Assembly: GCA_965112155.1 (NCBI GenBank)
Contig: OZ218101.1
Reading direction: 5' to 3' (one strand)
Source of the DNA: Podarcis liolepis
Lineage: Eukaryota
Length of the DNA stretch: 64,000 bases
The notes under the pieces are model-generated. The model saw only the letters and a program-made list of their open reading frames with translations, made no database searches and was not told where the DNA came from. The translations under genes and the position numbers were made by a program. Every line of letters starts with the position of its first letter. The stretch's first letter is position 1. Below, one piece after another: positions 16,918 to 18,442 of the stretch.

Positions 16918-16998
16918 ATGCCTGCTCCGATGTGTTATTATTTTGACTGGTGGGAGCCTGGCTGCAACTGGGCGCAAACTTTGCTTCCCTTTTTTTAA
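16918..16998 (+). other. uORF in putative MAB21L1 5' leader (MPAPMCYYFDWWEPGCNWAQTLLPFF*)
   Basis: ATG 16918 to TAA 16998, read directly; weak context (taaATGc). Only a uORF if the TSS is upstream. Confidence 0.45.
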
Positions 16999-17011
16999 CT
17001 GCAGCTCTTCC

Positions 17012-17032
17012 ATGCTTTCCTCTGCTCCCTGA
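17012..17032 (+). other. Short uORF (MLSSAP*) in frame with the MAB21L1 CDS
   Basis: ATG 17012, TGA 17030-17032; 351 nt (117 codons) upstream of the main ATG. Confidence 0.45.
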
Positions 17033-17362
17033 AGGATCCTTTCCAACAAAAAACCCAGGGGTTTGTGTGCCTGTGCGTGTTTGGGAAAGACTCCGAGATC
17101 TATCCGGGGCAGAAGTGTCCACCTCCAGCCTGCAAGGAGAGAGAAAGACAGCCTGCGAGCGAGCCTCGGAGCTGAGGAGGAGCCGAGCAGCAGAAAGAGC
17201 AGCGGCGGCGGCGAGAGCAGCGCCTTTGGGCGGCCTGGGGCTCCGCTTCCCCGCGCCGGGCGTCCGGATTCCCGTCTGAAGTTGGCTCCCGCCTTAGCAG
17301 CCGCATTGGATCCCAGCGCGTACTGCGAGACTCCGGTCTACAACCCGGATCTCTGTCCCAAC

Positions 17363-18442
17363 ATGATCGCGGCGCAGGCCAAGCTGGTGTACCACCTCAA
17401 CAAATACTACAACGAGAAGTGCCAGGCGCGCAAGGCGGCCATCGCCAAGACCATCCGCGAGGTGTGCAAGGTGGTGTCGGACGTGCTGAAGGAGGTGGAG
17501 GTGCAGGAGCCGCGCTTCATCAGCTCCCTCAACGAGATGGACAACCGCTACGAGGGCCTGGAGGTCATCTCGCCCACCGAGTTCGAGGTGGTGCTCTACC
17601 TCAACCAGATGGGCGTCTTCAACTTCGTCGACGACGGCTCGCTGCCCGGCTGCGCCGTGCTCAAGCTGAGCGACGGGCGCAAGCGGAGCATGTCGCTCTG
17701 GGTGGAGTTCATCACGGCCTCGGGCTACCTGTCGGCGCGCAAGATCCGCTCGCGCTTCCAGACGCTGGTGGCGCAGGCCGTGGACAAGTGCAGCTACCGC
17801 GACGTGGTGAAGATGGTGGCGGACACCAGCGAGGTCAAGCTGCGCATCCGCGACCGCTACGTGGTGCAGATCACGCCCGCCTTCAAATGCACGGGCATCT
17901 GGCCGCGCAGCGCGGCGCACTGGCCGCTGCCGCACATCCCCTGGCCGGGGCCCAACCGCGTGGCCGAGGTGAAGGCCGAGGGCTTCAACCTGCTCTCCAA
18001 GGAGTGCCACTCGCTGGCCGGCAAGCAGAGCTCGGCCGAGAGCGACGCCTGGGTGCTGCAGTTCGCCGAGGCCGAGAACCGGCTGCAGATGGGCGGCTGC
18101 CGCAAGAAGTGCCTCTCCATCCTCAAGACGCTGAGGGATCGCCACCTGGAGCTGCCCGGCCAGCCGCTCAACAACTACCACATGAAGACTCTGGTGTCCT
18201 ACGAGTGCGAGAAGCATCCCCGCGAGTCGGACTGGGACGAGTCGTGCCTGGGCGACCGGCTCAACGGCATCTTGCTGCAGCTTATCTCGTGCCTGCAGTG
18301 CAGGCGCTGCCCGCACTACTTCTTGCCCAACTTAGACCTCTTCCAGGGCAAGCCGCACTCGGCTCTCGAAAACGCGGCCAAACAAACGTGGCGGCTGGCC
18401 AGGGAGATCCTCACCAACCCCAAAAGTTTGGAGAAACTTTAG
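17363..18442 (+). CDS. MAB21L1: Mab-21-like protein 1 (cGAS/Mab-21 nucleotidyltransferase-fold developmental regulator), single coding exon, 359 aa
   Basis: ATG at 17363 (ccaacATGa) to TAG at 18442 = 360 codons. Protein MIAAQAKLVYHLNKYYNEKCQARK...LAREILTNPKSLEKL matches the vertebrate MAB21L1 sequence as I recall it, with L1-type residues YHLNKYYNEK and NEMDNRYEG. Nesting in NBEA (rather than LRBA) also indicates L1. Confidence 0.98.
   Translation: MIAAQAKLVYHLNKYYNEKCQARKAAIAKTIREVCKVVSDVLKEVEVQEPRFISSLNEMDNRYEGLEVISPTEFEVVLYLNQMGVFNFVDDGSLPGCAVLKLSDGRKRSMSLWVEFITASGYLSARKIRSRFQTLVAQAVDKCSYRDVVKMVADTSEVKLRIRDRYVVQITPAFKCTGIWPRSAAHWPLPHIPWPGPNRVAEVKAEGFNLLSKECHSLAGKQSSAESDAWVLQFAEAENRLQMGGCRKKCLSILKTLRDRHLELPGQPLNNYHMKTLVSYECEKHPRESDWDESCLGDRLNGILLQLISCLQCRRCPHYFLPNLDLFQGKPHSALENAAKQTWRLAREILTNPKSLEKL

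Follow-up and report, generated by a model that had tools for sequence, protein, structure and literature searches.

Where translation of MAB21L1 begins is the question raised by this locus. Defects in MAB21L1 and MAB21L2 lead to eye and cerebellar malformations. The window analysed here is a stretch of 64,000 nucleotides of Podarcis liolepis DNA that includes MAB21L1 and its leader. A preliminary description of it had proposed that the MAB21L1 frame may be extended at its N-terminus by initiation at a non-AUG codon.

The MAB21L1 locus and its open frame

The locus includes the following two features:

17033..17281, plus strand: stop-free GC-rich leader outside the conserved element (probability by chance ~0.10, no codon-position bias, no Pfam match)
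17363..18442, plus strand: annotated single-exon MAB21L1 coding sequence, from ATG 17363 to TAG 18442, 359 amino acids, ATG context cccaacATGa

The 359-residue product matched PDB 5EOG (E 1e-248) and contains the Pfam domains Mab-21 and Mab-21_C (Mab-21/cGAS-like nucleotidyltransferase fold). It grouped with MAB21L1 and not with MAB21L2 in the tree (support 98/93).

The nearest in-frame stop upstream of the ATG is TGA 17030-17032. As described earlier, the frame between them is open for 110 codons (17033-17362) and its last 29 codons read as given then; no in-frame ATG occurs in these 110 codons. The length of the open frame means little, because at least 83 further open codons are expected in this leader with P ~0.10 under a first-order Markov null built on the local leader, because third-position GC beyond the conserved part is unbiased (45/68 versus 91/136, P=0.61), and because the corresponding open stretch in human MAB21L1 has only 36 codons. 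Nine of the 20 stop-to-stop frames of at least 150 codons in the window fall between 14.1 and 18.5 kb. The 110-codon frame was rejected as coding evidence and is regarded as incidental, a chance product of GC-rich sequence.

The MAB21L1 gene lies within a CpG-island-like stretch. Third-position GC reaches 96% in its coding sequence (17363-18442) and 99% in that of MAB21L2 (L002:1570-2649); most of the window lies at 34-45%. A stop-free frame of 345 codons runs antisense to the gene (17294-18331, minus strand), overlapping both the coding sequence and the extension; it probably follows from the extreme GC content of third positions.

A 19-codon block common to MAB21L1 and MAB21L2

Searching the animal's own genome (1.57 Gb, 290 contigs) with the extended N-terminus gave two matches, the window itself and MAB21L2, and the DNA-level tests rest on these two sequences of one genome. 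Their comparison delimited the following elements:

17306..17362, plus strand: 19-codon conserved N-terminal extension, (M)DPSAYCETPVYNPDLCPN, common to MAB21L1 and MAB21L2
17282..17305, plus strand: 8-codon segment LAPALAAA, MAB21L1 only, whose final Ala codons also form the start context of TTG 17306
17327..17353, plus strand: weak CCGG..CCGG hairpin, predicted 3' of TTG 17306 and also in one MAB21L2 fold

The block is stop-free and in frame with the annotated coding sequence in both paralogues. Base identity between them is 3-8 per 15 positions upstream of -60 (counted from the ATG) and 11-13 per 15 from -60 to the ATG. At the peptide level, 15 of the 19 residues are identical; the peptide includes DPSAYCETPVYNPDLCPNMIAAQAK. 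The synonymous-biased substitution by which the preliminary description proposed to recognise a coding leader was found in the paralogue DNA: nine of the 19 codons differ, five synonymously and four non-synonymously (A/T, T/S, N/S, L/V), against synonymous/non-synonymous counts of 0/8 and 1/8 in the other two frames. When the 12 base changes were placed at random, a mean of 11.1 residues stayed identical, at least 15/19 was reached in 0.3% of 20000 trials (P=0.003), and the observed BLOSUM sum was reached in none of the 20000. The uncorrected pN/pS was 0.27 for the block and 0.19 for the coding sequence.

Codon composition gave a similar picture for part of the leader. G or C occupies the third position in 15/19 codons of the MAB21L1 block (19/38 at positions 1 and 2, P=0.033) and in 18/19 codons of the MAB21L2 block (19/38, P=0.0006), the bias pooled over both genes giving P=8e-5, with none further upstream. 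The ten codons from -87 to -57 have GC fractions of 0.7/0.6/0.6 by codon position, without third-position bias. Many G- or C-ending codons, as in the coding sequence, had been noted earlier for the last 29 codons; the excess over chance was confirmed for the last 19. The 8-codon segment specific to MAB21L1 is weaker than the 19-codon block.

Conservation of this kind could also be due to an untranslated RNA or DNA element, such as a structure, a protein-binding site or an enhancer. Such an element would suit the very high degree of conservation, the locus being a developmental one with many conserved non-coding elements (Ceroni 2024), and likewise the small hairpin predicted in both paralogues and the published peptide count of 0. 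The substitutions speak against it: pS between the paralogues is 0.53 in the block and only 0.20 in the coding sequence, whereas an element acting at base level would predict the reverse. In addition, the changes track one reading frame, and insertions are whole codons. Folding energies were no better than those of shuffled sequences (z -1.44, +0.34, -0.76 and +0.52, the last two being those of the 60-nt block), and no Rfam family covers the block, the sole Rfam row (E 0.71) falling outside it. The preliminary description had offered a conserved RNA element controlling initiation as its alternative; with folding within the shuffle range in both genes and no Rfam match over the block, that alternative was not borne out, and we regard an untranslated element of any of these kinds as highly improbable.

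Candidate start codons and depth of conservation

Three in-frame codons have been considered as starts of a translated block, downstream of short AUG-started ORFs:

16918..17032, plus strand: upstream AUG ORFs, one of 26 amino acids (16918-16998, second ATG at 16930) and one of 6 amino acids (17012-17032)
17276..17278, plus strand: in-frame CTG of the preliminary description, rejected as a conserved start (context 2/7, pyrimidine at -3)
17282..17284, plus strand: TTG at -81, second candidate start, MAB21L1 only (context ctgaagTTGg, purine at -3, G at +4)
17306..17308, plus strand: TTG at -57, main candidate non-AUG start (context gccgcaTTGg), same codon and position in MAB21L2

All three codons are in frame with MAB21L1, as previously stated. 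It was also correctly noted that both TTGs (aagTTGg and gcaTTGg) have a purine at -3 and G at +4, and that the annotated ATG lacks G at +4; the ATG has A at -3. Contexts were scored as the number of positions matched out of seven in the Kozak consensus. TTG 17306 scored 6/7, the MAB21L2 TTG at -57 5/7, ATG 17363 4/7 and CTG 17276 2/7. Having A at -3, the annotated AUG is an adequate start and probably the main one.

TTG 17306 lies at the boundary where similarity between MAB21L1 and MAB21L2 begins. Both paralogues of this genome have TTG GAT at -57 directly after GCN GCN codons, and the MAB21L2 counterpart (L002:1513) equals the TTG predicted as the human MAB21L2 start (1052-1109). The human MAB21L2 frame is open for only 20 codons upstream, which leaves almost no alternative start. 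TTG 17282 equals the predicted human MAB21L1 TTG (991-1072) and is absent from MAB21L2; its residue is L, or M assigned by the gene caller, in 20/28 protein rows. The residue at CTG 17276 varies among L, P, S and T (L in 12/26 rows), and this codon was rejected as a start, given also its poor context and the pyrimidine at -3. The sequences thus support, and we take as mostly right, a pair of putative UUG starts, one giving a 19-residue extension common to MAB21L2 and the other a 27-residue extension in MAB21L1 only. The near-cognate-initiated extension of 19-29 residues proposed earlier is supported by the coding-type tests and by published PhyloCSF scores, with the UUGs as candidate starts (19 and 27 residues); the CUG is not supported.

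The extension itself is not new, being already listed in the supplement of Fedorova et al. 2022 (PMC9789052). MAB21L1 and MAB21L2 are listed in its Supplementary Data 1A; they stand in PhyloSET, and both also in a RiboSET_ext sheet, with PhyloCSF scores over 120 mammals of 228.3 for human MAB21L1 (TTG 991-1072) and 291.6 for human MAB21L2 (TTG 1052-1109). Extensions of 81 and 57 bases place these starts at window positions 17282 and 17306. Footprints in the same tables are weak (MAB21L1 rank 1950/10470, coverage 40.9%; MAB21L2 rank 4331/10470, 7.1%), and the proteomics counts are 0 for MAB21L1 and 0 for MAB21L2. The main text of the paper names neither gene. In the supplements searched, two start-site or N-terminomics studies (Na 2018 among them) contain neither MAB21L1 nor MAB21L2, and a third (Bogaert 2023) lacks the extension peptide; the cell lines of those studies may not express these genes. 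The present analysis adds the -57 start in MAB21L1, conservation as deep as shark, insertions that keep the frame, and the lack of the block at invertebrate loci.

To follow the peptide further, 206 proteins were fetched among the matches listed. Forty-three of these are vertebrate-type with at least 19 residues before Met1, a sample biased in that the peptide is visible only in models that read the block in frame. The block peptide is kept in 41 of these 43 proteins reaching this far, among the matches listed: 37 have it without gaps and four with whole-codon insertions; the other two are models entering it midway. The sources include catshark, teleosts, newt, Xenopus, gecko, rattlesnake, pigeon, sparrow, bat, sheep and rodents. 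Conservation upstream of mammalian MAB21L1/2, stated in the preliminary description, was therefore confirmed and is deeper than mammals, extending from shark to mammals in both paralogues. Likewise, the frame-preserving indels anticipated there were observed, since all four insertion-bearing proteins among the matches listed gain whole codons (+1 in three of them, +22 in P0013). The 11 substitution types in the gapless rows have a mean BLOSUM62 score of +0.18, compared with -0.99 for random single-base changes (P=0.013). For the longer extension, the pattern LAPxxxAA was seen in MAB21L1 models of shark, teleost, amphibian, bird and mammal. Ten proteins among the matches listed begin exactly at the first residue of the block and two at -27, which would fit TTG starts called by bacterial-style gene finders.

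Some single records deserve mention. P0013, a JGI protein placed on a long branch among the MAB21L1 sequences, has its first residue at the same Leu and carries its 22 extra codons, rich in His, Pro and Gln, inside the block. Two fish MAB21L2 models, P0204 and P0160, read into the block from an in-frame Met that precedes it by 3 and 16 codons, respectively; judging from these models, the extension may be AUG-started in their lineages. In P0201 and P0203 the annotated Met1 is replaced and the block is kept; being one contig each, they were left out of the evidence, and they may represent errors or decaying copies, or else genes that depend on the UUG alone.

Outside vertebrates the block was absent. 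The DNA alignment search returned 80 loci (L003-L082), none of which reads as vertebrate; 38 distinct invertebrate leaders could be anchored among them and 0/38 carry the block, 23 of the 38 having an in-frame Met at most 12 codons upstream. A pattern search anchored at the start of the coding sequence yielded 0 metagenome stretches. Since the invertebrate loci are without it, the block is probably a vertebrate addition, made after the split from invertebrates and before the MAB21L1/L2 duplication.

The protein models bear on a second explanation, namely that splicing joins an upstream AUG exon to a coding exon whose 5' end is the block. In several database gene models the block is indeed preceded by unrelated sequence joined to it, an in-phase AG is found immediately 5' of TTG 17282, and coding-type evolution alone is no proof of non-AUG initiation (Fedorova et al. 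2022, PMC9789052). At the shared -57 boundary, however, no AG is present in either paralogue, and the stretches before nearby AGs contain only 8-12 pyrimidines in 19. Moreover, the upstream parts of the joined gene models disagree among themselves, and the block is contiguous in the human principal transcripts. A spliced origin is hardly to be expected on this evidence.

Upstream AUG ORFs are a feature of both leaders. Those of the window both end well before the UUGs; the MAB21L2 leader (L002:944-1322) contains short ones, among them a start-stop ORF and one of 3 codons. In both genes they end 250-550 bases before the main start, and they could determine the number of ribosomes arriving at the UUGs.

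These ORFs suggest translational control, and the block might accordingly be translated for the sake of the act itself, a nascent-peptide stall or ribosome queue tuning use of the AUG, instead of for a longer protein. The non-AUG uORF of AZIN1 is a precedent for control of this type. The Pro-rich character of the peptide, together with low footprints and no peptide in the published human data, would be in agreement with it. Two observations count against it: the frame is fused to the coding sequence without a stop, and P0013 tolerates an insertion of 22 codons. We consider this explanation very unlikely.

Predicted protein forms and comparison with known systems

The explanation that fits best is a real, ancient, coding-type extension of MAB21L1 and MAB21L2, likely UUG-initiated, and we hold this to be very probable. 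The 57 bases before the annotated ATG would be a protein-coding block common to both genes. Some scanning ribosomes would start at UUG 17306 and, in MAB21L1 only, probably also at UUG 17282. The AUG, with A at -3, would take most of the initiation, and leaky scanning would produce minor forms of 378 and 386 residues beside the 359-residue protein. The predicted masses are 41.0 kDa (359 residues), 43.1 kDa (378) and 43.7 kDa (386).

The tail is acidic, with three Asp/Glu, two Cys, two Tyr and Ser/Thr-Pro sites; the two Cys and the two Tyr are almost invariant in the protein rows. In two AlphaFold2 models it had no confident fold (pLDDT <50 over residues 1-24 and 1-17), and the spine helix began 2-3 residues before Met1, the second model being poor (pTM 0.44). 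A flexible acidic tail would thus precede the long spine helix, and the N-terminus would be Met-Asp instead of Met-Ile. The last tail residues, Pro-Asn, would cap the helix, like Pro/Ser/Ala-Asp in the AUG-started arthropod and mollusc forms. Because AlphaFold2 gives the tail no confident fold, its functional role can only be inferred; most likely it affects how stable a fraction of the protein pool is, or how that fraction binds its partners. A stronger proposal, that the 378-residue UUG form is a separately needed vertebrate invention kept in both paralogues since their duplication, its acidic tail controlling the ligand- or RNA-binding surface by the spine helix, seems doubtful to us. Were it true, the solved structure and the tagged constructs would be without this form, and the patient variants classed as 5' UTR or start-loss (MAB21L1 c.-68T>C and MAB21L2 c.1A>C) would need re-reading.

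The crystallised chain (PDB 5EOG) covers the 359-residue form only. A functional study of MAB21L1 used an N-terminally FLAG-tagged clone of ~41 kDa, a design in which an upstream start could not show up. Should the longer forms exist, 57-81 bases that are at present screened as UTR would be coding. The MAB21L1 variant c.-68T>C, treated as non-coding in Seese 2021, falls on window position 17295, which is the second base of a Leu codon in the 27-residue extension (codon read in the Podarcis sequence). It would then alter the protein only in its 386-residue form, as a missense change at a naturally varying position, and may be tolerated because Ser and Pro occur there in amphibians. Similarly, MAB21L2 c.1A>C, cited as p.Met1? 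in Ceroni 2024, need not be null if the longer forms are real, because the UUG form would survive it with a single Met-to-Leu change. Mechanisms of this type are familiar, and both genes have been listed before, so that the value of the present analysis lies in a sharply defined target.

Invertebrate mab-21 leaders (MLVPxD in arthropods, MLLxGSSPD in molluscs) likewise place coding residues, mostly ending in Asp, before the vertebrate Met1 position. They differ in being AUG-started, only 6-9 residues long and unrelated to the vertebrate block. The residue before the vertebrate Met1 position is Asp in 21/38 distinct invertebrate leaders and Asn in vertebrates, and a Met at the Met1 position itself is not always kept in invertebrate mab-21. 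Asp and Asn are typical helix caps.

The rows of Fedorova 2022 (PMC9789052) agree with the present results in genes, frame, the two TTG positions (-81 in MAB21L1, -57 in MAB21L2) and positive PhyloCSF; they cover human and mammals only, unlike the present range to shark. The main texts of Ivanov et al. 2011 (PMC3105428) and of its 2025 follow-up do not mention MAB21. The extensions described by Ivanov et al. 2011, among them the UUG cases NTF3, ENOX2/tNOX and TEAD1, likewise combine a near-cognate codon in good context with an in-frame downstream AUG. In MAB21L1/2, by contrast with that set, no out-of-frame AUG lies between the UUG and the AUG, and two ancient paralogues both retain the extension.
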